This document shows positions 1,577 to 28,254 of a DNA stretch of 28,254 bases, one piece after another. Within the stretch, counting starts at the first letter, position 1, and the number at the start of each line of letters is the position of its first letter. The notes beneath the pieces were generated by a model. The model had not been told where the DNA came from. It made no database searches and was given only the letters and a program-made list of their open reading frames with translations. Source of the stretch: Candidatus Cloacimonadota bacterium (GTDB lineage: Bacteria > Cloacimonadota > Cloacimonadia > JGIOTU-2). Location: assembly GCA_014384665.1 (NCBI GenBank), contig JACNFI010000095.1:1-28254 (forward strand), in the 5' to 3' direction. Both the position numbers and the translations under genes were made by a program.

Positions 1577-2992
1577 TTAAAATAAAAATTTATCCTTCGG
1601 GACTTGGTGACTTTGTGGCAAAGTTTTTATTGGATATTTTCCATCAAAACACGCATAGCAAAATTCTTTATTATTATCAACCAAATTTTTTAAATCTTCG
1701 ATAGTTAGATAACGCAGTGAATCTGCTCCCATATAATCTTTAATTTCTTCTACTGTTTTTTGATTTGCAATAAGCTCCTCACGAGTGGGTGTATCTATTC
1801 CATAGAAGCACGAGAATTTTACCATAGGAGAGCCAATTCTTATATGAACTTGTTTAGCACCATTTTTTCTAACCATTTTTACTAATTTACGAATTGTTGT
1901 TCCGCGAACAATAGAATCATCTACCAATGTAACAATTTTCCCTTTGAAATAATCAGGCAAGGCATTGAATTTTTGAGTGACACCTTCATCACGAATTGTT
2001 TGCTCTGGAACAATAAAAGTCCTTCCAACATAGTGATTTCTAATCAATCCAAAATTGAAATCCACTCCTAAACCTTTTGCATAACCAAGAGCAATGAAAT
2101 TACTTGAATCAGGAATTGGTATCACAATATCAGGAATATTACTTTCCTTTTCAGCAAGCTTTTGTCCAAGTTTTTCACGAAAATCATATACTTTATGGTT
2201 ATAAACTATACTATCAGGACGGGAGAAATATATCATTTCAAAAACACAGTGTGCATTGTGATTACTTGTGCGATAATTATTTGGATTTTGTGGAGTGCTC
2301 TTAAGCCCTTTTTCATCAACAATAAGTATTTCTGCAGGATTTATTTCTCGTATAAAATCAACATTTACAATATTTAGGCAGCAGGTTTCAGAAGCGAAAA
2401 CATAAGTATTATCTTTTTTTCCAATTATAAAAGGTCTATTTCCATAAGGATCTCGAAATGCATATATTTTATTTTTTATAAGCAACAATGTTGAATATGA
2501 GCCTTGAAAGTTTTGCATAATTTTTTTTATTGATTCTATGATTGACAATCCTTTTTTTATATGCCAGAAAACCAGATATTTTAATATCAATTCTCCATCG
2601 TTTTCTGATTCAAAGAATACACCTTGTTTTTCTAATTGCTTGCGAATATTAGAGTAATTTACGATATCTCCGTTACCTACTAAAGCAAAGCTTTGTCCAG
2701 AAAGTGTATTAAGAAGATAGGGTTGGGCATTATTTATGTTAGATTTTCCTTTTGTAGGATAACGAACATGTCCAATTGCTAATTTGCCATCCATTTTTTT
2801 CGATTTTTTTTCAGTAAATACTTCCTTAACCAAGCCCATTTCTTTTGTTATAGAAATTTTATTGCCATCAGAAACAGCGATTCCACAACTTTCTTGACCT
2901 CTATGTTGTTCAGCAAAAAGAGCATAAGCTGCAAGTTTGGCAGCATTTGTGTGTTTTTTGTCCTTTTGATAAATTCCAATTATTCCGCACAT
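1577..2992 (-). CDS. purF: amidophosphoribosyltransferase (glutamine PRPP amidotransferase)
   Basis: The 471-aa translation starts MCGIIGI, the N-terminal nucleophile Cys of Ntn glutamine amidotransferases. A PRTase-type PRPP-binding region (VTLVDDSIVRGTT) follows. The C-terminal cysteine-rich stretch (CYACFDGKYP) is consistent with an Fe-S-type PurF. Confidence 0.9.
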   Translation of the reverse strand: MCGIIGIYQKDKKHTNAAKLAAYALFAEQHRGQESCGIAVSDGNKISITKEMGLVKEVFTEKKSKKMDGKLAIGHVRYPTKGKSNINNAQPYLLNTLSGQSFALVGNGDIVNYSNIRKQLEKQGVFFESENDGELILKYLVFWHIKKGLSIIESIKKIMQNFQGSYSTLLLIKNKIYAFRDPYGNRPFIIGKKDNTYVFASETCCLNIVNVDFIREINPAEILIVDEKGLKSTPQNPNNYRTSNHNAHCVFEMIYFSRPDSIVYNHKVYDFREKLGQKLAEKESNIPDIVIPIPDSSNFIALGYAKGLGVDFNFGLIRNHYVGRTFIVPEQTIRDEGVTQKFNALPDYFKGKIVTLVDDSIVRGTTIRKLVKMVRKNGAKQVHIRIGSPMVKFSCFYGIDTPTREELIANQKTVEEIKDYMGADSLRYLTIEDLKNLVDNNKEFCYACFDGKYPIKTLPQSHQVPKDKFLF

Positions 2993-3021
2993 AATATTTT
3001 TTTAATTCTCTTCTGTGGGAA

Positions 3022-3252
3022 GGGCGTGAACGCCCTGATATCTTCTTCTGTTTTTCTTTTCCCAGCCATGAATGGCTGGGTTATTGACTATAAGGGCGTA
3101 AACGCCCCTTGTACATATTTTTTCCTTTTTCTCTCATAAAAAGGCATTCCGTAGCCCAGTCGTTTTTAACCCGTGAAATTCTATAAGGAATATTTCACTG
3201 GGTTATACGACTGGGATTATGATAGAATATGAAGGATACGCCGTTTACGGCG
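3022..3252. repeat. cluster of five GC-rich palindromic hairpins in the plsY-purF intergenic region
   Basis: Seen directly in the sequence: GGGCGTGAACGCCC (3022-3035), CCCAGCCATGAATGGCTGGG (3061-3080), GGGCGTAAACGCCCC (3094-3108), CCCAGTCG…CGACTGGG (3155-3216) enclosing an inner ACCCGTGAAAT…ATTTCACTGGGTT hairpin, and CGCCGTTTACGGCG (3239-3252). All are GC-rich islands in AT-rich spacer. Confidence 0.7.
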
Positions 3253-3912
3253 TTACCATAGCTTTTTCTCTTTGCCATTCATTAACCTTTTTATATTCTC
3301 TTTATGACGAAAAATAATTAAAATCATAATAAAAGCTGTCAATATTAAAAAAGGAAGCTCGTCAAAATTTGGTATGTTTTTTATTAATTCTGTGCCGAAA
3401 AATGTTATTACTGCAATCATAGATGCAAGAGATACATATCTAAAAATAATTAGTATTATTACAAAAGGAATTAAAGCATAAATAACAGGAACAGGAATTA
3501 TGTTTATAAAAGCACCGGCTCCAGTCGCAACACCTTTACCACCTTTGAACTTTAAAAAAATAGGAAATATATGACCTAACACTACAGAAATTCCAACTAT
3601 AATAATCAAAATTTGAAAAGTTTGAGTTCCTTTAATATTATTAAAGACATTTAAAATTGAAATATTGAATATATTCGTTGGACTTTCAAGAATACAGCGT
3701 CCAATTTGAACTGCAAAAAATCCTTTTAAAAAATCAAAAATAAGAGAGATGATACCCGGAATTACACCAATTACTCTAAATACATTGGTTGCACCAATAT
3801 TTTTACTTCCATAATTCCTGATATCAATTTTTTTAAGTATTTTCCCAAGAATAAAACCACTCGGTATAGCACCAAGTAGATAAGCAATTATGATTGCAAT
3901 AATAAATTTCAA
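3253..3912 (-). CDS. plsY: glycerol-3-phosphate acyltransferase PlsY (acyl-phosphate dependent)
   Basis: The 219-aa polytopic membrane protein has the GSKNIGATNVFR motif characteristic of PlsY/YgiH. It overlaps der by 4 nt, a conserved der-plsY linkage. Confidence 0.85.
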   Translation of the reverse strand: MKFIIAIIIAYLLGAIPSGFILGKILKKIDIRNYGSKNIGATNVFRVIGVIPGIISLIFDFLKGFFAVQIGRCILESPTNIFNISILNVFNNIKGTQTFQILIIIVGISVVLGHIFPIFLKFKGGKGVATGAGAFINIIPVPVIYALIPFVIILIIFRYVSLASMIAVITFFGTELIKNIPNFDELPFLILTAFIMILIIFRHKENIKRLMNGKEKKLW

Positions 3913-5231
3913 TTTTTTCTTCCTTTATATTTAAATCTTAATGTAACACCTTCAAATTTATATATTTCTCTTATTTGGTTATGAATATATCGTTTATAAT
4001 TTTCAGTAATTAATTTTGGATTATTAACACTAAACACAAATGTTGGAGGATGAACATTTGCTTCTGTGCAATAATAAAATTTAACATTTTTTTTTGATGG
4101 ATGGTGAGGAGCATATTTCTGAAATACTGATTGAAAAAATTGATTTAGTTTGCTGGTTGGAATTCTTAAGTTACTTTGTTCTTCAACATATAATATAAGT
4201 TCCAGAAGTTTATTGACTCTTTTTCCTGTTAATGCAGAAATAAATATAATTGGAGCATAGTTAATGAATCCCATTTCTTCCCTGATTTTTTGAATATATT
4301 TACTGGTTGTATCATTCTCTTTTGCTATAAGGTCCCATTTATTCACCACAATAATAATATCCTTATATTGGGATTGTGTATATTCTACTATTCGTTTATC
4401 TTGTAAAGAAATTTCTTCTTGGGCATCAAGCAATACTAAAACTATATCTGATGAGTTTATGCTTCGTAAACTACGTAGATTACTAAAATATTCAATGCCA
4501 AATTTCACTTTGCTCTTTTTCCGAAGTCCTGCAGTATCAATTATTGTCATAGGTCTTTCTTTATAGTTAAAATTGAGGTGTATAGAATCTCGTGTGGTTC
4601 CTGGAATTTCAGTAACAATTACTGCATTTTGACCAATGATTTTATTAACTAATGAAGACTTTCCTACATTTTGTTTTCCAACAACTGCGATTTTTATTGA
4701 TTCTTTATTTAATATATCATATTCAGATTTACCTGGTGGAATTTTTTCAACTACATTATCTAACAATTCACCAAAATTTCTTCCACTAATTGCAGAGATT
4801 CCAATTGGCTCTCCAAGACCTAAATTCAAGAAATCAAATAAATATAACTCATCTTTTTGATTATCTACTTTGTTTAAAACGAAAATTACTTTATCAAGGA
4901 TGGGAAATAATTTCTTTGTAATTTGCTCATCTGTTGTAGTTATTACCGTTTTGCAATCAAGAACAAAAATAATAATATCTGCTTCTTGAATTGCTATTTC
5001 TACTTGCAACTGAATTAACTGTTCCATTTCATCAAATGAGTTTGGCACCATCCCACCAGTATCTACAGCTATAAATGAATAACCTGACCATTCAGTTTCT
5101 TGATATTTTCTGTCTCTCGTAACACCGGATTCTTTATCAACTATTGCAAGTCTTTTTCGCACCATACGATTAAAAATGGTGGACTTTCCTACATTAGGTC
5201 TTCCGATTATCGCGACTATTGGGATTGACAT
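3909..5231 (-). CDS. der: ribosome-biogenesis GTPase Der (EngA), tandem GTPase domains plus a C-terminal KH-like domain
   Basis: The 440-aa translation has two P-loops (GRPNVGKST and GKQNVGKSS), DTAG/DTGG G3 motifs and NKVD/NKWD G4 motifs. This is the classic double-GTPase architecture. Confidence 0.9.
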   Translation of the reverse strand: MSIPIVAIIGRPNVGKSTIFNRMVRKRLAIVDKESGVTRDRKYQETEWSGYSFIAVDTGGMVPNSFDEMEQLIQLQVEIAIQEADIIIFVLDCKTVITTTDEQITKKLFPILDKVIFVLNKVDNQKDELYLFDFLNLGLGEPIGISAISGRNFGELLDNVVEKIPPGKSEYDILNKESIKIAVVGKQNVGKSSLVNKIIGQNAVIVTEIPGTTRDSIHLNFNYKERPMTIIDTAGLRKKSKVKFGIEYFSNLRSLRSINSSDIVLVLLDAQEEISLQDKRIVEYTQSQYKDIIIVVNKWDLIAKENDTTSKYIQKIREEMGFINYAPIIFISALTGKRVNKLLELILYVEEQSNLRIPTSKLNQFFQSVFQKYAPHHPSKKNVKFYYCTEANVHPPTFVFSVNNPKLITENYKRYIHNQIREIYKFEGVTLRFKYKGRKN

Positions 5232-8280: not shown

Positions 8281-8314
8281 ATAAAGTATATGATTTGATT
8301 AAAATTATTTATAG

Positions 8315-8515
8315 ATGAGTTCACTATAAAAACCCGTCCGTCTGGGCGCCGAGACCGACGAAACACACGAAATACTCGAAAATGGTTTGTGTAAATTCAG
8401 CCCGTCTGCCCGTCTCCCGATATATCGGGAGACGAGACAGAGGCGCCGAGCCTGATAATATACGCATGTATTTTTCGCGTATTTCGTGGGAGATACCTTT
8501 TTATAGTGAACTCAT
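8315..8515. mobile_element. MITE-like 201-bp nested palindromic element (E2) with perfect 18-bp terminal inverted repeats
   Basis: The TIRs are ATGAGTTCACTATAAAAA (8315-8332) and TTTTTATAGTGAACTCAT (8498-8515). Internal features are the inverted repeats CACGAAATAC/GTATTTCGTG, a central perfect hairpin CGTCTCCCGATATATCGGGAGACG, and duplicated GGCGCCGAG cores. It is GC-rich relative to its surroundings and shares a 21-nt core with E1. Confidence 0.6.
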
Positions 8516-8550
8516 AGATATTTAATTTATTCTATTTTGGAAGGAGAATA

Positions 8551-8808
8551 ATGCCAGAACATAAATCTTGTAAAAAAAGACTTCGTTCGGATGAAAAAAA
8601 AAGAGTTAGAAATAAATATGTAAAGAAAAGCATTAATACAATGATCAAAAAGCTTAAGAAAATTTCTAATAAAACTGAAATGGAAAAAATGTTACCAAAG
8701 ATCTATTCTTTACTTGATAAGGCAGTAAAAAAAGGTGTAATACACAAAAATAATGCTAATCGAAGAAAGTCTCGTTTAGCAAATTTTGTAAGCAAATTTG
8801 AGTTTTAA
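8551..8808 (+). CDS. rpsT: 30S ribosomal protein S20
   Basis: The 85-aa basic protein starts with SCKKRLRSDEKKRVRNK and ends with HKNNANRRKSRLANFV, matching S20 N- and C-terminal signatures. GGAAGGAGAATA precedes the ATG. Confidence 0.85.
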   Translation: MPEHKSCKKRLRSDEKKRVRNKYVKKSINTMIKKLKKISNKTEMEKMLPKIYSLLDKAVKKGVIHKNNANRRKSRLANFVSKFEF

Positions 8809-12752: not shown

Positions 12753-12768
12753 AGTTTTGAAAAAGCTT

Positions 12769-12786
12769 AACGGGGTAAACCCCGTT
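12769..12786. terminator. perfect palindrome AACGGGGTAAACCCCGTT, 17 nt after the peptidase stop; candidate terminator or hairpin-family member
   Basis: It is a 7-bp GC-rich stem with a 4-nt loop. The U-run is on the upstream (antisense) side only, so it is not a canonical intrinsic terminator on the plus strand. It belongs to the CCCCGT hairpin family seen elsewhere in the window. Confidence 0.4.
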
Positions 12787-12865
12787 AAATAATTCACATT
12801 GTCCATTCTCCGTAGCACTGCGAAGGATGAATTATATAATTATTATCCTCTTCGGTTTGTTATAT

Positions 12866-13035
12866 TTAACGGGGTAAACCGCAAAATAATAATTGATTTA
12901 ACCGCGAATATACGCGAATTTACCCCGTTAGATATTCAGTTTTTTATTTCTATCTCCACCCGGATAATAAAATTATCTAACAGGGTAGACACTAATTTTT
13001 TTCTCTTAATTAGCGAAAATTAGCGTTAATTAGTG
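12866..13035. repeat. intergenic repeat block: CCCCGT-family hairpins plus a tandem 10-mer (TTAATTAGCG/AAAATTAGCG/TTAATTAGTG)
   Basis: AACGGGGTAAACCGC (about 12868) pairs with GCGAATTTACCCCGTT (about 12915-12931). TTTACCCCGTTAGAT…ATCTAACAGGGTA (12922-12988) forms a hairpin followed by CACTAATTTTTTT. A tandem 10-bp ×3 lies at 13006-13035. The AATTAGTG/CACTAATT motif is shared with the E1 boundaries. Confidence 0.55.
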
Positions 13036-14711: not shown

Positions 14712-14788
14712 AACAAAGAAAACACAACAAAGAAGAGATAAGCCATTAACTTACCCTAAACATCTCGAATAGAAATATTAAAATGAAA

Positions 14789-14819
14789 AGTTAGTGAGTG
14801 TTCGTGTAAGTTCGTGGCG
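14789..14819 (+). promoter_or_regulatory. conserved leader motif AGTTAGTGaGTGTTCGTGtAAGTTcGTGGCG, 22 nt upstream of the SPFH gene start
   Basis: It is near-identical to 27367-27452, which lies upstream of the 27473 membrane-protein gene. That copy carries an extra 55-bp CCCCGTG hairpin inserted between the two halves. In both cases AGGAGG and the ATG follow directly. Confidence 0.45.
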
Positions 14820-14840
14820 AAATAACTCATAGGAGGAAAA

Positions 14841-15740
14841 ATGGGTATAATAGTCATCATTATAATTCTGATTGTGCTATATTGGCAGGCAAAGAGTATT
14901 TTCCATGATAAAGCTAACCTGGCAAAAACTATTATTATTTTGCTAATTATAATTGGAGTTTTATCACAAACGATTAAAGTTGTAGAACCAGGTAAAGTAA
15001 AAGTGCAGGTGCTGTTCGGAAAGGTGCAAAAAAGGATTTTGCACAGCGGACTTAATTTTGTAAATCCGTTAATAACTATGCGTACTATGAGTGTTCGCAC
15101 AGAAGCTTATACAATGAGTGCTGCACGATATGAAGGTAGAGTCCGAGGCGACGATGCAATAAAAGCATTAACTTCTGATGGTATCATACTGCCTATGGAT
15201 ATTACATGCTTGTTTCATTTAATAGCTGATAAAGCACCAGAGGTATATGAAAAAATTGGCTATGATTATGAATCAAAGATTATCCGACCTGAACTCAAAA
15301 CGATTATCCGACAAGTTATTAGTAACTTTAAAATGGAGCAGGTATATTCTTCTGCAAGAGATACTATTGCTCTAAGAATGAAAGAAGAAGCTCATAAGAA
15401 ATTATTTCCAAGAGGAATATTTATTGAGGATGTTCTTTTAAGAAATGTTACTCTTCCAAAACAGGTAGAAACAGCAATAAATGCAAAAAAGACTGAGCAA
15501 CAAAATTTTGAAAAGATGCTCTATACGCTACAGAAAGAAGGAAAGGAAAAAGAGAGAAAGATTATCGAAGCAGAGGGTATCAAAATTGCCAATCAAACTA
15601 TTGCAGAAGGTCTAACAGAAAGTTATCTTAGATGGTATCAAATTGATATGATGAAAAAATTGATTGATAGCCCGAATAACACGATTATCTTTATTCCAAT
15701 GGGACAGGAGATTACACCGATAATTAATACAGGGAAATAA
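14841..15740 (+). CDS. SPFH/band-7 (stomatin/prohibitin-like) membrane protein
   Basis: The 299-aa translation has an N-terminal TM segment. The SPFH core (KVVEPGKVKVQVLFGKVQ…, IRPELKTIIRQVISNFKMEQVYSSARDTIALRMKEEAHKKL) and a C-terminal coiled-coil are typical of the family. An RBS (AGGAGGAAAAA) precedes the ATG. Confidence 0.8.
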   Translation: MGIIVIIIILIVLYWQAKSIFHDKANLAKTIIILLIIIGVLSQTIKVVEPGKVKVQVLFGKVQKRILHSGLNFVNPLITMRTMSVRTEAYTMSAARYEGRVRGDDAIKALTSDGIILPMDITCLFHLIADKAPEVYEKIGYDYESKIIRPELKTIIRQVISNFKMEQVYSSARDTIALRMKEEAHKKLFPRGIFIEDVLLRNVTLPKQVETAINAKKTEQQNFEKMLYTLQKEGKEKERKIIEAEGIKIANQTIAEGLTESYLRWYQIDMMKKLIDSPNNTIIFIPMGQEITPIINTGK

Positions 15741-15850
15741 GGAAATAGAGGTATAAGGGAAAAATCAAAAGGCAAAATGTAAAAGGCAAAATTAAAAGTT
15801 ATAGGGCAGAAATTTTTAATATATTGAAATTTTATTCTTTCCCTGTAAAT
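15632..15850 (+). repeat. direct repeat copy A: last 35 codons of the SPFH gene plus about 110 bp downstream; partner at 16637-16857
   Basis: 15632-15850 and 16637-16857 align end to end at roughly 85% identity. Copy B still encodes WYQIDMMKKLIDSPNNTIIFIPRGQDITPIINTGK*, against native …FIPMGQEITPIINTGK*. Confidence 0.8.
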
Positions 15851-15903: not shown

Positions 15904-15927
15904 TCGTAACCCGTAACCCGTAACTCG
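15904..15927. repeat. tandem heptamer CGTAACC ×3 (TCGTAACCCGTAACCCGTAACTCG)
   Basis: Seen directly in the sequence, in the region carried in with the bioY insert. Confidence 0.6.
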
Positions 15928-15954
15928 AATAGCATTTTTTATCAGTGAATATCT

Positions 15955-16010
15955 GTGTTTACCCCGTGTAATATAAAACGCTTCACTATTACACGGGGTG
16001 AATCTGTGGC
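15955..16010 (+). promoter_or_regulatory. GC-rich hairpin GTGTTTACCCCGTGTAATAT-N13-TATTACACGGGGTGAATCTGTGGC, about 30 nt upstream of bioY; possible operator or hairpin-repeat family member
   Basis: It is a 12-bp perfect stem. The flanking ACGGGGTGAAnnnGTGGC motif recurs at 27249-27266 (reverse orientation) and 27436-27452. Confidence 0.4.
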
Positions 16011-16039
16011 TAATATTTTCTCGGCGGTGAAAGGAAAAA

Positions 16040-16636
16040 ATGGAAAATCTAAAAAGAATGAACACAATGGCTGAAGCTTGTTTTCCAAGAATTGGAATTT
16101 TGAGCAATCCGATAATTTATAACTTGCTATTGATTTTAGGTGGCAGTCTCTTTATCTCCTTGACCGCACAATTAGCATTTCGTTTGCCTTTTACTCCAGT
16201 GCCAATAACAATGCAGACATTTGGAGTGCTTTTAATTGGACTTACATATGGTAGCAAGAGAGGTGCTTTAACATTGGTTGCATACCTTGCAGAAGGAGCA
16301 ATGGGCTTACCAGTATTTGCGAATGGTGGGTGTGGAATTGCTTACCTTTGCGGTCCCACAGGTGGATATTTGTTTGGATTTGTAGTTGCAGCATTTGTTA
16401 TTGGATACTTGGCAGAAAATGGCTGGGATAGAAAAATGTTGACTGCATTTGCAGCAATGTTGATTGGCACAATTGTTCTATTTGCTTTTGGTTTGCTCGG
16501 GCTGAGCAGATTTGTTGGTGAAGATAAATTATTTGTCGCAGGATTGATTCCGTTCATTCCAGGTGAGATTTTTAAGAGCATTCTTGTGGCTATTTCATTG
16601 CCAACTGCATGGAAGGTTCTCATAAAAAAATTTTAA
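16040..16636 (+). CDS. bioY: biotin transporter BioY (ECF-type S component)
   Basis: The 198-aa polytopic protein has the BioY hallmark PVPITMQTFGVLLIGL and GPTGGYLFGF motifs. A strong RBS (AAAGGAAAAA) precedes the ATG. It is visibly more GC-rich than its neighbours and is flanked by the 15632/16637 direct repeats. Confidence 0.85.
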   Translation: MENLKRMNTMAEACFPRIGILSNPIIYNLLLILGGSLFISLTAQLAFRLPFTPVPITMQTFGVLLIGLTYGSKRGALTLVAYLAEGAMGLPVFANGGCGIAYLCGPTGGYLFGFVVAAFVIGYLAENGWDRKMLTAFAAMLIGTIVLFAFGLLGLSRFVGEDKLFVAGLIPFIPGEIFKSILVAISLPTAWKVLIKKF

Positions 16637-16857
16637 ATGGTACCAAATTGATATGATGAAAAAACTGATTGATAGTCCGAATAATACGATTATCTTTATC
16701 CCGAGGGGACAAGATATTACACCAATAATTAATACTGGAAAGTAGTATATAAAAGGAAATAAGGAGATAGGGATATAAGGATATAAGGCAAAATGTAAAA
16801 GGCAAAAAATTAAGAAGCAGAAATTATTAATATAGAGAAGATTTATTCTTTTACCCT
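16637..16857 (+). repeat. direct repeat copy B (diverged duplicate of the SPFH 3' end plus downstream spacer)
   Basis: See copy A. It includes the in-frame remnant of the 35 C-terminal SPFH codons with its own stop at about 16747-16749. Confidence 0.8.
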
Positions 16858-18577: not shown

Positions 18578-18617
18578 TCTGCGTTCTCTGCGTCTTCGCG
18601 GTGAGTGAAAGGAACAA

Positions 18618-21093: not shown

Positions 21094-21600
21094 ATGCAGA
21101 AAAATATGAAACTAAACGGCAAAATATGGTTGATTACTAACAATAATAATCTCATAAACGATATTGACACAGATATGATTTTCCACAATAGATATTTAGC
21201 AATCACAGATATAAATCAGATGGGACAATATGCATTTGATAATCTTAATGGATGGAAAGATTTTGCAAAGGAAAGTGAGAAAGGTGATATCATCATTGCT
21301 GGGAAAAATTTTGGTTCTGGTTCATCCAGACAGCAAGCAGTTGATTGCTTTATCTCGCTTGGAATTCAAGCAATTTTGGCTGAATCTTTTGGTGCTATCT
21401 ACAAACGAAATGCAATAAATTCAGGATTACCAATCTTACAAATTAAAAAAATAAATTTACAAAAATTTAATCAACGAGAAAAAATTGTAATTAATTTAGT
21501 TGATGGCTCAACTAATTCGGAATATTTAGAAATAGAGCCTTTTTCAAAGGTTCAGCTGGATATTTATCAATCAGGAAATTTATTCTCCTATGGAAAGTAA
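21094..21600 (+). CDS. leuD: 3-isopropylmalate dehydratase small subunit (aconitase swivel domain, LeuD-like)
   Basis: The 168-aa translation has the GKNFGSGSSRQQA…AESFGAIYKRNAIN motifs typical of LeuD. An alternative start at 21106 (MKLNGKIW…) is possible. Confidence 0.85.
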   Translation: MQKNMKLNGKIWLITNNNNLINDIDTDMIFHNRYLAITDINQMGQYAFDNLNGWKDFAKESEKGDIIIAGKNFGSGSSRQQAVDCFISLGIQAILAESFGAIYKRNAINSGLPILQIKKINLQKFNQREKIVINLVDGSTNSEYLEIEPFSKVQLDIYQSGNLFSYGK

Positions 21601-21659
21601 CGCAATTGTCTCAATTGCGACACAAACCCCCGATTTCTCGGGGGGGACGATTGTGTTAC
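21596..21659 (+). repeat. composite hairpin H1 directly after the leuD stop: GTAAC-[CGCAATTG tct CAATTGCG]-[ACACAA a CCCCCGA tttc TCGGGGG ggacga TTGTGT]-TAC
   Basis: Seen directly in the sequence. The same structure recurs at 21992-22040, but there it lacks the inner CCCCCGA…TCGGGGG mini-hairpin. It could act as a terminator or recombination site, or it may be a nested hairpin insertion. Confidence 0.65.
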
Positions 21660-21662
21660 AAA

Positions 21663-21738: not shown

Positions 21739-21969
21739 ATGTTAAATACAGTTAGAGGTATATATGAAAATGGGGTAATAAAACCTTTTGAAAAAGTAAG
21801 AGATAAAGAAAGGTCAGAGGGCATAATTATCTTTTTAGATACTGCCAAAGAGAAGAAATCAGCTTTCTTTTCCTCGGCCGGCTCATGGAAAGATGTAGAT
21901 ACCGAGGTCTTGAAAAAACAAATATACGAAAGCAGAAAAATTTCTAATAGAAGAAAAATTCAGCTATGA
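21739..21969 (+). CDS. DUF104 (AF2212-like) family putative antitoxin, orphan
   Basis: The 76-aa translation starts MLNTVRGIYENGVIKPFEKV…EGIIIF, matching the conserved N-terminus of the DUF104 antitoxin-like family that is usually paired with PIN/VapC toxins. The RBS is AAAGGAGG. No adjacent PIN-domain ORF is present. Confidence 0.5.
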   Translation: MLNTVRGIYENGVIKPFEKVRDKERSEGIIIFLDTAKEKKSAFFSSAGSWKDVDTEVLKKQIYESRKISNRRKIQL

Positions 21970-21978
21970 TTTCATTCC

Positions 21979-22078
21979 TTCTCCTATGGAAAGTAACGCA
22001 ATTGTCTCAATTGCGACACAATCGGAGACGATTGTGTTACAAAATCCAGATGATTTATCAGGCAGGAAATTTGTTTAA
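21979..22078 (+). repeat. second copy of the cassette-boundary module: leuD tail fragment (TTCTCCTATGGAAAGTAA), hairpin H3 (21992-22040), then a degenerate tail
   Basis: TTCTCCTATGGAAAGTAACGCAATTGTCTCAATTGCGACACAA is identical to 21580-21622. H3 is the simple form …ACACAATCG gaga CGATTGTGT TAC. The following 22041-22078 parallels 21660-21716. An ATG of a cargo gene follows each module. Confidence 0.7.
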
Positions 22079-22080
22079 AT

Positions 22081-22418
22081 TTGGGAAAATATAGTATGAT
22101 TAGTAAAGAGCAGATTCATGAAATTGTACAAACTATTGTAAAAGGCTACAATCCAAAGAAAATAATCCTTTTTGGTTCGTATGTTAGTGGAAATCCTTCT
22201 GAAGATAGTGACTTAGACATGTTTCTTGTGAAAGAGAGCAAACTTCCAAGATATAAACGAGCAAGGCAGGTTCATAAATTATTTGACCCCTTGTGCGATG
22301 GATATAATCGTGTACAACACAAATGAAATAAAAAAATGGAAAGATGTCAGAAATTCTTTTGTATACGATGTTCTAAAAAATGGGAAAGTGTTATATGAAC
22401 AAACTGGTTGAAGAGTGG
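22081..22418 (+). pseudogene. mntA: MNT-type (minimal) nucleotidyltransferase antitoxin gene, interrupted by a +1 frameshift
   Basis: The N-terminal 81 aa contain the nucleotidyltransferase motif ILFGSYVSGNPSEDSDLDMFLV (GS…DxD). The frame then ends at 22326. Reading +1 from the CCCC run at about 22288 gives …PCAMDIIVYNTNEIKKWKDVRNSFVYDVLKNGKVLYEQTG*, the canonical MNT C-terminus. The shift sits in a C4 homopolymer, so this is a genuine frameshift or a sequencing error. Confidence 0.65.
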
Positions 22419-22776
22419 ATTCATAAAGCAGAAAATGATTTTTTAGATGCAGAAAATAATTTGAAAAGTCAGCAGATACCTACTGATACAGTCTGTTTTC
22501 ACTGCCAACAAGTAGCAGAAAAATATCTGAAAGCTTACTTGATTTCAAGAAACAAATCCTTTCCCCAAATTCATAATCTCATTCATCTGATGTAATTATG
22601 TAGAGAACTGGACCCAATTTTTTTGAAGTTAAAAGATGAACTAATAATTCTAAATGACTATGCAGTAGAAATTCGCTATCCTGACGACTGGTTGTGAACC
22701 AACCATTGAAGAAGCCAATGAAGCATTGGAATTAGCAAGAAAAGTAAAAGATTTTATATCTATAAAAATAAAATAG
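22380..22776 (+). pseudogene. hepT: HEPN-domain toxin gene (HepT-like), interrupted by two frame changes
   Basis: The first 71 aa (…AENDFLDAENNLKS…CFHCQQVAEKYLKAYLISRN…IHNLIHLM*) form the HEPN N-terminal helices. Downstream in other frames the reading continues ELCRELDPIFLKLKDELIILNDYAVEIRYPDDW (the Rx4-6H-like RYPDD HEPN motif), then EPTIEEANEALELARKVKDFISIKIK*. The start overlaps the end of the MNT gene, as in mntA-hepT pairs. Confidence 0.6.
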
Positions 22777-26302: not shown

Positions 26303-27247
26303 ATGAAATTTTCTGAAAGTATTCAAAAACTTGATAGAAGATATATTTATATAGTTGTTGCACTTGCTGTCATTATTCCATTGATATTTCCACTTGGTTT
26401 AAAAACATATCTTACTACTCCTGTGGAAGACCTTTATAAACATATTGATGAAATTGCAGGTCGTGATGATATGGCAATTTTAATTGATTTTGCCCAAAGT
26501 CCATCTACTATGCCAGAATTGTATCCAATGGATATAGCAATCTTAAGGCATTGTTTTCAAAGAAGAATAAAGGTCTTTACCATAGCATATTTTCCTCAAG
26601 GAGCTGCAATTGTGGAAATGGCATTGGCTGAAGTTAAAGAGGATTTTCCTGAGATAAAACAAGATGTAGATTATTGCAACTTCGGATATAAATCTGGTTA
26701 TATGTTTTTGCCAATTGTTCTTGGAATGGGTGATGATATTGCAAAAGCTGTGGAAACAAACAGTGAAGGAAATATGCTTGAAAATCTTCCTATAATGGAA
26801 AAAATTAAGAATTATGATAACATTCAGGTAATTATTGAAATAACTGGTTCGACACCTGGTATTTCGTATATTACTTACGCAAGAGGAAGATTTGGAGTAG
26901 ATGTAGCTGTAGGTGTTACAGCCGTTTCTGCTGCAGATGTATATCCTTATTTGCAGACAGGACAATTGATAGGAAGTCTTGGTGGGTTAAAAGGCGCCGC
27001 AGAATACGAAGAATTGGTGCAAACCTTTGCTATGCAAAATCTTGACTATAGTAAAAAAAACGCAAGTGATGTTGATTGGAGAGAGAAACAATATTCACTA
27101 TCAAGTGTTCCATATAAATATAAGAAAGCAAGAGTTGGTATGGATACTCAAGCAGTAGTTCATGTATTAATAATTCTGTTTATTGTAATTGGAAATATTG
27201 GATATTTTATTGAAAAAAGAACTGAAAAACATAAGTATGTTAAATAA
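26303..27247 (+). CDS. bitopic membrane protein with a large extracytoplasmic domain between N- and C-terminal TM helices, unknown family
   Basis: The 314-aa translation has an RBS (TAAGGAGAAGAAA). The N-terminal TM is YIYIVVALAVIIPLIFPL and the C-terminal TM is AVVHVLIILFIVIGNIGYF. No catalytic motif is recognised. Confidence 0.65.
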   Translation: MKFSESIQKLDRRYIYIVVALAVIIPLIFPLGLKTYLTTPVEDLYKHIDEIAGRDDMAILIDFAQSPSTMPELYPMDIAILRHCFQRRIKVFTIAYFPQGAAIVEMALAEVKEDFPEIKQDVDYCNFGYKSGYMFLPIVLGMGDDIAKAVETNSEGNMLENLPIMEKIKNYDNIQVIIEITGSTPGISYITYARGRFGVDVAVGVTAVSAADVYPYLQTGQLIGSLGGLKGAAEYEELVQTFAMQNLDYSKKNASDVDWREKQYSLSSVPYKYKKARVGMDTQAVVHVLIILFIVIGNIGYFIEKRTEKHKYVK

Positions 27248-27248
27248 A

Positions 27249-27459
27249 GCCACGAATTCACCCCGTTAGATGCTATTACCCAGTTAGATGATTGCTATTT
27301 AATGGAATGTTATCTAACGGGGCAAGCACTAACTATCACGAACAAAAATTTTATTATATAATAAAGAGTTAGTGCTTGTTCGTGTTTACCCCGTGAAATA
27401 ATGCTTTGCATTAAAATCTCTGATTTTATTTCACGGGGTGAAGTTGGTGGCGGATAATT
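27249..27459. repeat. composite palindromic element bounded by inverted 18-mers GCCACGAATTCACCCCGT / ACGGGGTGAAGTTGGTGGC
   Basis: It contains the hairpin CCCCGTTAGAT…ATCTAACGGGG (27262-27323). It has interleaved inverted repeats AGCACTAACT/AGTTAGTGCT and CACGAACA/TGTTCGTG, with pseudoknot-like topology. It also has the hairpin TTTACCCCGTGAAATAA…TTATTTCACGGGGTG (27385-27440). The 3' half equals the 14789 leader motif plus an inserted hairpin. Confidence 0.6.
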
Positions 27460-27472
27460 TATTGGAGGATAA

Positions 27473-28072
27473 ATGACTGAAATTATTGGAATCTGGATAG
27501 CGGCATTTCTTACTTTATGTATGTTTTCGTTTTTATACAAAGAAAACCCTTTTTATAGATTTGCGGAGCACCTTTTTGTTGGATGTTCTATGGGATATTT
27601 TATTCCTTATACTTATTATAATGTTTTTATTCCTTATACTTATAATCCTTTATTCCTAAGAAAGGAGTATATTCTTATTATACCATTTATTATTGGTCTT
27701 TTGTACTGGTTAAGATTTTCTGGTAAGTATAGCTGGCTTAGTAGATATCCTATTGCATTCGGTTTAGGTATTGTTGGAATGGGTGTTCCAATGTCTATGC
27801 ATGCAAGTGTGCTTGTGCAGATGAGAAGTATGATGTTGCCTTTAGATAATATAAATATCATCCTAATTTTTATTGGAACTATTACCATACTTCTTTATTT
27901 CTTTTTCTCAAAAGCTCATACAGGTATTTATGGGAGATTTACTTCTATTGGAATATGGTTTATGATGGTAGGATTCGGTGCTTCTTTTGGATATACTGTA
28001 ATGGCTCGTATTTCTCTGCTCATTGGAAGAGTACAGTTTCTTCTTGAGGAGTGGTTGCATATTATTAAATAG
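27473..28072 (+). CDS. polytopic membrane protein (about 5-6 TM), unknown family
   Basis: The 199-aa hydrophobic ORF has an RBS (TGGAGGATAAATG). It carries an aromatic-rich loop FIPYTYYNVFIPYTYNP. It is the last gene of a same-strand run of four membrane proteins. Confidence 0.6.
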   Translation: MTEIIGIWIAAFLTLCMFSFLYKENPFYRFAEHLFVGCSMGYFIPYTYYNVFIPYTYNPLFLRKEYILIIPFIIGLLYWLRFSGKYSWLSRYPIAFGLGIVGMGVPMSMHASVLVQMRSMMLPLDNINIILIFIGTITILLYFFFSKAHTGIYGRFTSIGIWFMMVGFGASFGYTVMARISLLIGRVQFLLEEWLHIIK

Positions 28073-28254
28073 ATTTATAGAAACATACAGCACAAGGGTA
28101 TCTCAGGAATTTTCATTCAGTTTTGCCTTTGTGCTTTTTATTAAATAAACGAACAAATAATATAAAACATACACCACCGTGAATACGAAAGCAAAAGCTT
28201 ATGAAACATTCATGTCCCGAAAAAATTCGTGACACCCCATTAAATAGGAAAAGA

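Follow-up and report, generated by a model that had tools for sequence, protein, structure and literature searches.

We consider a stretch of 28,254 nucleotides (the window, AT-rich with a GC content of 31%) from a Candidatus Cloacimonadota bacterium, namely the forward strand of contig JACNFI010000095.1 in assembly GCA_014384665.1, and a motif of about 30 nt that lies in it upstream of an SPFH gene and of the gene at 27473 (g27473). A preliminary description read this motif as a leader conserved in front of membrane-protein genes, i.e. a shared promoter, operator or regulatory RNA in the 5' untranslated region, and kept the terminus of a repeat family as the alternative. It is the alternative that the evidence favors. 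The "leader" is probably a flank module, belonging to one subfamily of an intergenic repeat that forms hairpins, is lineage-specific and is of the kind of the repetitive extragenic palindromes (REP/REPIN) or of the miniature inverted-repeat transposable elements (MITEs), and on our best reading this repeat is non-autonomous.

Orthologous junctions and placement of the repeat

The genes DUF6754 (22798), g25639, g26303 (26303-27247) and g27473 form a cluster that is conserved throughout Cloacimonadota and beyond, and NCBI assigns the proteins of the window's g27473 cluster to Candidatus Cloacimonetes. The closest relatives of the g27473 protein are found in six of the loci fetched for comparison (L-numbers denote such loci), with an identity of 89% in L097 and of 83-85% in L098, L100, L102, L119 and L121. 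In all six, the gap between g26303 and g27473 measures 9-14 nt, as against 225 nt in the window, where it is made of two units of the repeat (B and A in Table 1) and the spacer between them, with nothing else. At 15 more distant metagenomic loci, the Shine-Dalgarno sequence (SD) and ATG of the g27473 orthologue come immediately after the stop codon of g26303's orthologue, and the element is present at none of the roughly 21 orthologous junctions. The spacer between the mutase and SPFH genes is ~25 nt long and without the motif in L058, L100 and L101 versus 129 nt in the window, that between the C25 peptidase and mutase genes is ~10 nt in L058 versus 319 nt in the window, and bioY is missing altogether from the corresponding region of L058, L059, L100 and L101. 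The element entered the lineage of the window after its split from relatives with neighboring proteins that are 83-89% identical. Because the orthologous junctions are empty, the motif represents a recent insertion specific to this lineage rather than a conserved leader. When the filled site in the window, AAGTATGTTAAATAAA(GCCAC…GTGGC)GGATAATTTATTGGAGGATAAATG, is set against the empty site in L097, AAGTATGTGAAATAA|GGAGAAGAAAATG, no clean target duplication is found. A compact lineage, with spacers of 1-30 nt in the relatives, has had its intergenic regions expanded ~5- to 30-fold through a burst of hairpin repeats.

The sequence identities on which the leader reading was based are real. The left string AGTTAGTGnnTGTTCGTGT occurs exactly twice in the window, at 14789 and 27367 (0.05 expected by chance); the left half AGTTAGTGNNTGTTCGTGT is exact at 14789-14807 and 27367-27385, with no other match at up to 3 mismatches. 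The right string AAGTTnGTGGCG(A/G)ATAA is present at 14808 and 27441, and the right half AAGTTNGTGGCGRATAA has no mismatch at 27441-27457 and two at 14808-14824. In both copies the GTGGC end stands 12 nt before AGGAGG/GGAGG and 21 nt before the ATG, and the inverted-end relation that had been seen in the composite at 27249-27459 is correct. The third partial copy, (C)ACGGGGTGAATCTGTGGC at 15992-16010, is found as described, 29 nt 5' of the bioY ATG. It has CACGGGGTGAA-TCT-GTGGC in common with the other copies, and only the 3' foot of a hairpin and the right box; CACGGGGTGAA at up to one mismatch occurs 5 times versus 0.11 expected. At 14789 the two halves of the motif are contiguous. At 27367 they are split by a 58-nt hairpin module (27385-27442), which is exactly missing from the 14789 copy. 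Additional copies, beyond those of the preliminary description, lie at ~12773-12878 and 12911-12997.

Is the repeat tied to membrane proteins, as had been proposed? The three downstream genes encode an SPFH/Band 7 protein, BioY and a 199-aa hydrophobic protein without a Pfam match, so the proposal suits these three; elsewhere the same end faces unrelated genes or the 3' ends of genes. The genes downstream of other copies include those of rubrerythrin and an S41 peptidase (by Pfam) and, by reading of the translations only, MnmG-like and HNH-endonuclease-like (homing-endonuclease-like) genes. There is no link between the repeat and membrane proteins. The placement of the copies tells against a leader as well. 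Both orientations occur, and the GTGGC ends adjoin stop codons as well as SDs: by a rough gene call, they lie 1-7 nt from a stop codon in 5 cases and 18-29 nt from an ATG in 6. Such varied orientation and position relative to genes is what the preliminary description itself had associated with a repeat.

The insertions sit in stop/SD spacers of formerly ~10-25 nt, even inside the conserved four-gene operon, and leave the SD and the ATG intact. In three independent cases (the B-A pair, L013 and L032) the element occupies the entire stop-to-SD gap between co-directional genes, and the corresponding gaps in relatives are ~10 nt. The near-constant distance to the start codon is thus a true observation, with its origin in where insertions are found: because a tolerated insertion only fits the gap between stop codon and SD, its end comes to lie one SD and one spacer from the ATG, and the constancy would be a by-product of insertion placement. 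For annotation, the motif should not be taken to mark a regulon of membrane-protein genes. Motif-discovery pipelines applied to these metagenome-assembled genomes (MAGs) will keep recovering it before start codons, where the repeat is tolerated.

Anatomy, pairing and distribution of the repeat unit

The 5' part of a unit holds 0-3 direct boxes with a period of ~10 nt and a consensus of ~TAAYCYGTGT (variants GTTAGTG, GTTCGTG and ATCTGTG in the window; ATCCGTG and GTCCGC elsewhere). A 4-nt linker (TTTA, TTCA or CTTG) leads to the hairpin, with a foot CCCCGT…ACGGGG that is invariant across copies, and the 3' linker TGAA leads to the right box. This gives a core TTTA-CCCCGT…ACGGGG-TGAA followed by the right end NNNGTGGC. 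The right box terminates in GTGGC, with TAA next in 11 of the 22 genuine matches of the genome scan described below. The distal stems (GTGAAATAA, GTGTAATA, GTTAGAT, GT[T/A]GGAT) vary yet stay complementary, the loops range from ~4 to 50 nt, and the box AATCCGTG recurs in variant form as the hairpin foot ACCCCGTG. In some copies the left box is inverted (GCCAC…GTGGC), which provides terminal inverted repeats. This arrangement, GCCAC-N3-TTCACCCCGT…ACGGGGTGAA-N3-GTGGC, is found in L001, L009, L032, L037 and the B-A composite. Direct left boxes are found in units A and C, L018, L028 and others. Units also form inverted pairs, as with B-A at 27249-27457 (GTGGC ends outward) and an equivalent doublet in L042 at 4844-5089.

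The units of the window are listed in Table 1. The hairpin module is dispensable, being missing from copy D: this copy equals unit A minus TTACCCCGTG…CACGGGGTG, and the gap falls exactly between GTTCGTGT and AAGTT. The local alignment of 14739-14843 with 27323-27475 scores 83.8 (shuffles, 44.8 +/- 5.3), and copy D is preceded by a spacer that aligns with the one at 27344-27366. A decayed unit B to the left of copy D (14712-14790) was considered and rejected as not significant, with 19 of 300 shuffles scoring equally well. Unit B has its GTGGC end 1 nt away from the g26303 stop codon, and unit A is followed by the SD GGAGG (27464-27468) and the ATG at 27473. Unit C has the 7-mer ATCTGTG on either side of its hairpin. 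Unit E is without a GTGGC end, which leaves its orientation ambiguous.

Table 1. Repeat units and adjoining features, in window coordinates, with their scores by model R1
Feature	Position	Strand	Composition	R1 score (bits)
Family hairpin cluster, directly 3' of C25 peptidase gene	12768-12878	.	Short hairpin TTAACGGGG-TAAA-CCCCGTTAA (12768-12789); long hairpin CCCCGTTAAATA…TATTTAACGGGG (12780-12874)	26.6 (E 3e-4)
Unit E, degenerate	12911-12997	.	CGCGAA boxes; linker TTTA; hairpin CCCCGTTAGATATT…AATTATCTAACAGGG; TAGACAC	43.0 minus, 33.5 plus
Unit D, hairpin-less, 5' of SPFH	14789-14825	+	AGTTAGTG-AGT-GTTCGTG-TAA-GTTCGTGGCG-AAATAA; three boxes, 10-nt period	
Unit C, 5' of bioY	15945-16013	+	Boxes (C)AGTGAAT and ATCTGTG; linker TTTA; hairpin CCCCGTGTAATA…TATTACACGGGG (15962-15998); then TGA, ATCTGTG, GC, TAA	57.3 plus, 31.7 minus
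Unit B, sense on minus strand	27249-27343	-	Boxes GTTCGTG-ATA-GTTAGTG; linker CTTG; hairpin CCCCGTTAGAT…ATCTAACGGGG (27261-27322), 3' arm duplicated; linker TGAA; right box TTCGTGGC	54.2 minus, 27.1 plus (also in hairpin scan)
AT-rich spacer between units B and A	27344-27366		Contains TATAAT (27355-27360), promoter-like by eye only	
Unit A (reported motif)	27367-27457	+	Boxes AGTTAGTG-CTT-GTTCGTG (27367-27384); linker TTTA (27385-27388); hairpin CCCCGTGAAATAA…TTATTTCACGGGG (27389-27438); linker TGAA (27439-27442); right box GTTGGTGGC (27443-27451); tail GGATAA (27452-27457)	48.8 plus, 33.6 minus
Onset of next repeat-rich spacer	28170-28254	.	3' of the canonical terminator of gene 27473-28072	
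Further family hairpin, just past window end	~28235-28302 (L054 8493-8560)		Weak	17 (E 0.14)

The pairing of the hairpin is examined in an alignment of 25 copies, from which the loops were cut out by hand and which also underlies model R1. In this alignment 92% of the cells of the 16-pair stem are paired, as against 29-49% in slid controls, and 22 compensatory cells are found at 4 pairs, values that none of 500 shuffles reaches. The hairpin is maintained across the copies. The four basal pairs are U.G or G.U in 14 and 8 of the 25 copies and therefore form on the sense strand only. Fold computation gives hairpins that are stable both as RNA and as DNA (unit A: RNA -31.1 kcal/mol, z -3.3, and DNA z -6.9; plus-strand transcript of unit B: RNA -26.5 kcal/mol, z -3.7). 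The structure supported by the pairing is this one hairpin only. The Rfam gathering scan of the whole window has no match, the E-value scan of 27200-27500 returns only sub-threshold models of microRNA hairpins, and the terminator scan has no terminator-like site within 27249-27459.

How widely is the repeat spread? The hairpin scan and model R1 give 5 hairpin copies in the window and 3 more in L054, which extends 4.3 kb past the window end, all of them intergenic. By the same two methods L097, L119 and L121 (3-18 kb each) have one copy each (in L121 the coordinates differ between methods), and L098, L100 and L102 (61.8 kb) have none. The hairpin scan of L058-L096 (375 kb) finds one hairpin, apparently by chance, and model R1 finds none in 14 of the L058-L077 loci (within a 297-kb run). 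We also scanned one genome per species (n=185,579 species) with the pattern CCCCGT-N20-50-ACGGGGTGAA-N3-4-GTGGC. Of the 53 matches, 22 form at least 10 pairs and are true hairpins; the remaining 31 form 9 or fewer, are mostly from high-GC genomes and look like chance.

The true matches comprise five Cloacimonadota-labeled loci from 3 MAGs (L013, L014, L018, L032, L042), copies in the unclassified MAGs CBDVDA01 (7), JAWODZ01 (2) and CAZETW01 (1), and single copies in MAGs labeled Sedimentisphaerales (L050, on a 207-kb contig), Pirellulales, Verrucomicrobia, Paceibacterota, Bacteroidales and Bacteroidota. Of the matches across phyla, the assignment of L050 is the most secure, whereas L005, L019, L026, L001 and L009 are on short contigs and may include binning errors. 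The last one is on an Armatimonadota-labeled contig, L022, in which the copy with ~95 nt of flanks differs by 1 base from L013; the two are probably the same sequence binned twice. Related copies are thus present in MAGs labeled Planctomycetota, Verrucomicrobiota, Bacteroidota and Patescibacteria and in other Cloacimonadota MAGs. An element borne by phages was considered and discarded, as viral contigs gave a single match, which is the same Polyangiaceae contig as the chance match L008.

Some copies within a genome have the same loop, which argues for the copying of whole units. In the MAG with 7 copies, a near-identical loop is found in three of them. Internal sequence is common within the subfamilies L016/L021/L044, L003/L028/L037 (a common 61-nt hairpin, roughly 80% alike by eye only) and L013/L014/unit B; none is common to units A, B and C. 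Independent short-read assemblies of the window organism end in or beside copies B and C (L056, L057, L108, L111-L113), as expected of a multi-copy repeat; the repeat limits the contiguity of short-read assemblies of this organism.

Two arrangements of family hairpins outside the window deserve mention. In a Bacteroidota MAG (L009, 2291-4032), an MNT/HepT toxin-antitoxin pair (2685-3315) lies between two direct repeats of ~200 nt, each made of 153 nt and an adjoining 53 nt that together include a CCCCGT hairpin of the repeat family. Because these direct repeats contain the family hairpin, the family also occurs within larger units that flank cassettes. In L119 (10700-11500), ~7 tandem copies of a ~130-nt unit lie 3' of the g27473 orthologue; each bears a microsatellite of heptamers, (ATCCGCA/ATCTGCA)n, and the array has a family hairpin beside it.

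Mobilization and rival explanations

If the motif belongs to a non-autonomous repeat, the copies would be made in trans by an enzyme that recognizes a folded single strand. The likeliest candidate would be a Y1 (HUH) transposase of the RAYT/TIRYT kind, which we prefer because the one filled-versus-empty comparison shows no clean duplication, because the basal pairs form on the sense strand only and because the termini resemble the GGGGWSAS of TIRYT inverted repeats. RAYT-like genes flanked by inverted repeats with this common sequence, some of them multi-copy and forming repeat families, have been described (Di Nocera et al. 2013, PMC3733652). The counterpart in our element is GGGGTGAA or GGGGTGAG, a 7/8 match in most copies. 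Co-transcribed copies would add a stable stem-loop to the mRNA. This may incidentally alter mRNA stability or the coupling of operon genes, but would not amount to dedicated control of them; effects on the neighboring genes are probably incidental.

A number of points weigh against this account. Two motif scans of 930 kb of loci find no Y1-like open reading frame (HUH and Tyr motifs), and no transposase is tied to the element in the loci scanned. A profile search does find Y1_Tnp (PF01797) genes in Omnitrophota and Elusimicrobia MAGs (L114-L118), set tightly between their neighbor genes and bounded by an inverted repeat, AAAAGGGGACAGGCTAC…GTAGCCTGTCCCCTTTT, that contains GGGGWSAS and GTAG; the TIRYT repeats inspected (AAAAGGGGACAGGCTAC / GTAGCCTGTCCCC; GGGGACAGGCTAC) are only loosely like the element. 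The GTAG or CGTC tag of the described REP super-families is missing, and compared with classical REPs the units have a greater length and much more variable loops. Matching 7-8-nt direct repeats flank the hairpin in many copies (ATCTGTG/ATCTGTG in C and L018, ATCCGTG/ATCCGTG in L028), which suits a DDE transposase with target-site duplication better. Many of the 25 aligned sequences were collected with a pattern that fixes ACGGGGTGAA…GTGGC, i.e. the 3' foot and right box, so that the conservation of this segment across phyla is partly due to the search pattern and is not independent evidence. Finally, a regulatory side effect on downstream genes may exist. A mobile element was also sought in the 3.4 kb of L042 that is missing from L032; the genes of this segment are instead those of a hybrid-cluster (prismane) protein and of an S41 peptidase.

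A bolder form of the repeat reading, to which we give a low probability, is that of an undescribed REPIN-like super-family with a single horizontally spreading mobilizer, perhaps a Y1 enzyme, that prefers the few nucleotides separating a stop codon from the following SD. It has in its favor a terminus of ~20 nt, TTAGCCAC-N3-TTCA-CCCCGT, that is nearly unchanged across MAGs labeled Cloacimonadota, Planctomycetota, Verrucomicrobiota, Bacteroidota and Patescibacteria, and the box arrays of 10-nt period, seen 5' of many genes in these genomes, could then be scars or recognition-site arrays of the mobilizer. On this view the family would be actively remodeling the spacers of operons. If a common mobilizing enzyme is indeed behind the cross-phylum termini, the family would offer a useful way into the repeat dynamics of uncultured anaerobes.

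We also think it unlikely that the repeat, although mobile, has been co-opted, with its outward end or the B-A spacer supplying a promoter or a protective 5' stem-loop. Such a repeat would restore or uncouple downstream expression, in the manner of Correia, ERIC and RUP elements. The B-A insert interrupts a conserved operon yet spares the SD, the hairpins are stable as RNA, and sequences like a -10 box precede several copies: TATAAT in the spacer, 6 nt 5' of the unit A start, a 9/12 sigma-70-like site (14757-14784) that ends 4 nt before the first box of copy D, and TAAAAT or TATTAC 4-5 nt before the first box in L014 and L042. Hexamers of this type are, however, frequent by chance at the GC content of the window, no -35 is evident, and promoter-like sites are not in excess over shuffles. 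The scan with the sigma-70 consensus, which may not be that of the phylum, finds no site in the 27344-27366 spacer and another 9/12 match at 27430-27458, inside A. Moreover, about one third of the copies point into the 3' ends of genes.

The main mechanistic rival is a DDE-type MITE with target duplication, which we regard as rather improbable. Here the core TTCACCCCGT…ACGGGGTGAA would insert into a preferred 7-8-nt target, AATCYGTG, and duplicate it; the 10-nt box arrays would result from repeated insertion and loss at one spot, with copy D as a footprint. Identical or near-identical 7-8-mers do flank the hairpin in C, L018a and L028, agreement extends to 7 of 8 positions in L003, L014 and L050, the inverted repeat begins directly inside these 7-8-mers, and GTTCGTG-TAA-GTTCGTG in copy D corresponds to the two 7-mers together with the terminal linker bases T and AA. 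On the other hand, L013, L018b and L054a/b are without matching flanking boxes, the inverted left boxes of L001, L009, L032 and L037 are not explicable as duplications, and the similarity of left and right boxes follows the subfamily, so that it may be inherited. The filled and empty g26303|g27473 junctions disclose no clean duplication, and neither a transposase nor a parent insertion sequence was found.

A shared cis-regulatory leader that co-ordinates membrane-protein genes is, after this, very improbable. Two near-identical copies do have their end 12 nt 5' of an SD, compensatory changes are present in the hairpin, and a -10-like hexamer lies 4 nt 5' of the first box at A (TATAAT, by eye) and at D (TAAAAT, within the 9/12 match). 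These features are outweighed by its absence from all orthologous junctions of the 6 close and ~15 distant relatives, by copies in both orientations, copies adjacent to stop codons and functionally unrelated downstream genes, by the lack of an Rfam match, and by motif halves that are 58 nt apart in one copy and contiguous in the other, a geometry unsuited to a fixed promoter or operator.

Least credible of all is a role of the hairpins as transcription terminators or integron attC sites: these are GC-footed stem-loops after stop codons, and two copies bracket the toxin-antitoxin cassette in L009, but no T-run follows the stem on either strand (the post-stem linkers are TGAA, TAAA or CAAG), the organism has canonical terminators such as the one after gene 27473-28072, just two sites come up in the terminator scan, the small hairpin at 12766-12789 and a weak sub-hairpin (15992-16008), the copies have no GTTRRRY/RYYYAAC core sites, no integrase is among the window proteins scanned, and the neighbors are core metabolic genes in conserved synteny. 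Other ideas were discarded more simply. An upstream open reading frame, with the GTG of GTGGC as a start coupled to the ATG, fits copy A only; mimicry of SD/anti-SD by GGGGTGA / TCACCCC is inconsistent with the positions and orientations; the resemblance to a DnaA box (TGTGGCTAA vs TGTGGATAA) has one mismatch and is judged coincidental; and a sigma-54 or extracytoplasmic-function sigma promoter has no match by eye.

Relation to described repeats and further features of the window

The searchable literature has no description of such repeats in Cloacimonadota (repeats, palindromes, MITE, RAYT), and a search with the string ACGGGGTGAA returns only primers. The closest comparison is with the REP/BIME/REPIN elements of E. 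coli and Pseudomonas, which are associated with RAYT. Like these, the element has many extragenic copies that are strand-oriented imperfect palindromes and form inverted pairs, lie between co-directional and convergent genes and are co-transcribed, with a patchy, lineage-specific abundance and no obvious target duplication. Unlike these, it has no GTAG or CGTC tag and a conserved tail, GGCTAA, in about half of the copies. No GTAG or CGTC is found next to the stem except in a doubtful match in L007, the stem being flanked 5' by TTTA, TTCA or CTTG and 3' by TGAA. Its units of 60-100 nt with copy-variable loops of 4-50 nt contrast with REPs of 20-40 nt, it carries extra arrays of ~10-nt boxes, no cognate RAYT was found, and its termini are near-identical in MAGs of several phyla, whereas REPs are usually genus-specific. 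With no tag, longer units and variable loops, the element is outside the described GTAG and CGTC super-families of REPs.

The TIRYT repeat families (PMC3733652) share with the element an inverted-repeat motif led by GGGG, an occurrence as singles, dimers or clusters, a moderate abundance, and host phyla that include Planctomycetes and other non-proteobacterial groups. They differ in that their readable repeats GGGGACAGGCTAC (Omnitrophota, Elusimicrobia) align only loosely with it, and no TIRYT gene bounded by the element was found. Correia elements (Neisseria), ERIC/IRU (enterobacteria) and RUP/BOX (pneumococcus) are likewise MITE-like, 100-200 nt long and inside transcription units, with terminal inverted repeats in a subset, insertion just 5' of starts or in operons, stem-loops in the mRNA and a modular build in which the number of modules varies (BOX A/B/C). 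Their sequences, however, are unrelated, and these families show internal sequence conservation and defined duplications, of TA or otherwise, where our element conserves only the hairpin foot and the ends, and its boxes and hairpin come and go independently. The REP-like palindrome aAACCGTTgaAACGGTTt of Caldithrix abyssi is overrepresented and was judged by its authors to be no transcription-factor site (PMC5317091). It comes from a related phylum of the FCB group and is also intergenic and strand-specific, with an AACGG/CCGTT core; it differs in being an 18-nt perfect palindrome without a long loop, boxes or GTGGC ends.

Box-like tandem arrays without a hairpin are seen elsewhere. Unit E is followed at 13002-13034 by an array of 10-nt period, and more lie just 5' of other genes at 15905-15932, 18589-18612, L054 ~8590-8625 and L050 4380-4445. 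The period is mostly 9-10 nt and is 7 nt at 15905-15932; the sequences are AATTAGCG x3 (the array after unit E), TAACYCG x4, and TCTCTGCGT x2 followed by CTTCGCGGTGAG.

The bioY gene (16040-16636) with copy C constitutes an insertion that is not present in L058, L059, L100 and L101. The 3' tail of the SPFH gene is repeated after bioY (15616-15739 vs 16621-16744, 85% identity), with the bioY stop codon inside the second copy, and patchier repeats (71-100%) are found further downstream (15733-15840 vs 16755-16851).

A second, unrelated palindromic repeat, GTAACGCAATTGTCTCAATTGCGACACAA…GACGATTGTGTTAC, is present at 21578-21660 and 21974-22050 and also in L042 at ~1616-1690. In the window it brackets toxin-antitoxin-like genes: an AF2212-like gene (21739-21969), a nucleotidyltransferase (22081-22326) and a HEPN gene (22380-22595). 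L100 and L101 encode an identical g27473 protein, and the nucleotidyltransferase/HEPN pair is at the leuD|DUF6754 junction only in L100; the pair behaves as a mobile cassette. Lastly, nested GC-rich palindromes at 8300-8530, with arms 8302-8332/8498-8528 and 8366-8397/8457-8488, lie 5' of the gene at 8551-8808 (ribosomal protein S20 by sequence reading only), and their sequence is unrelated to the CCCCGT family.

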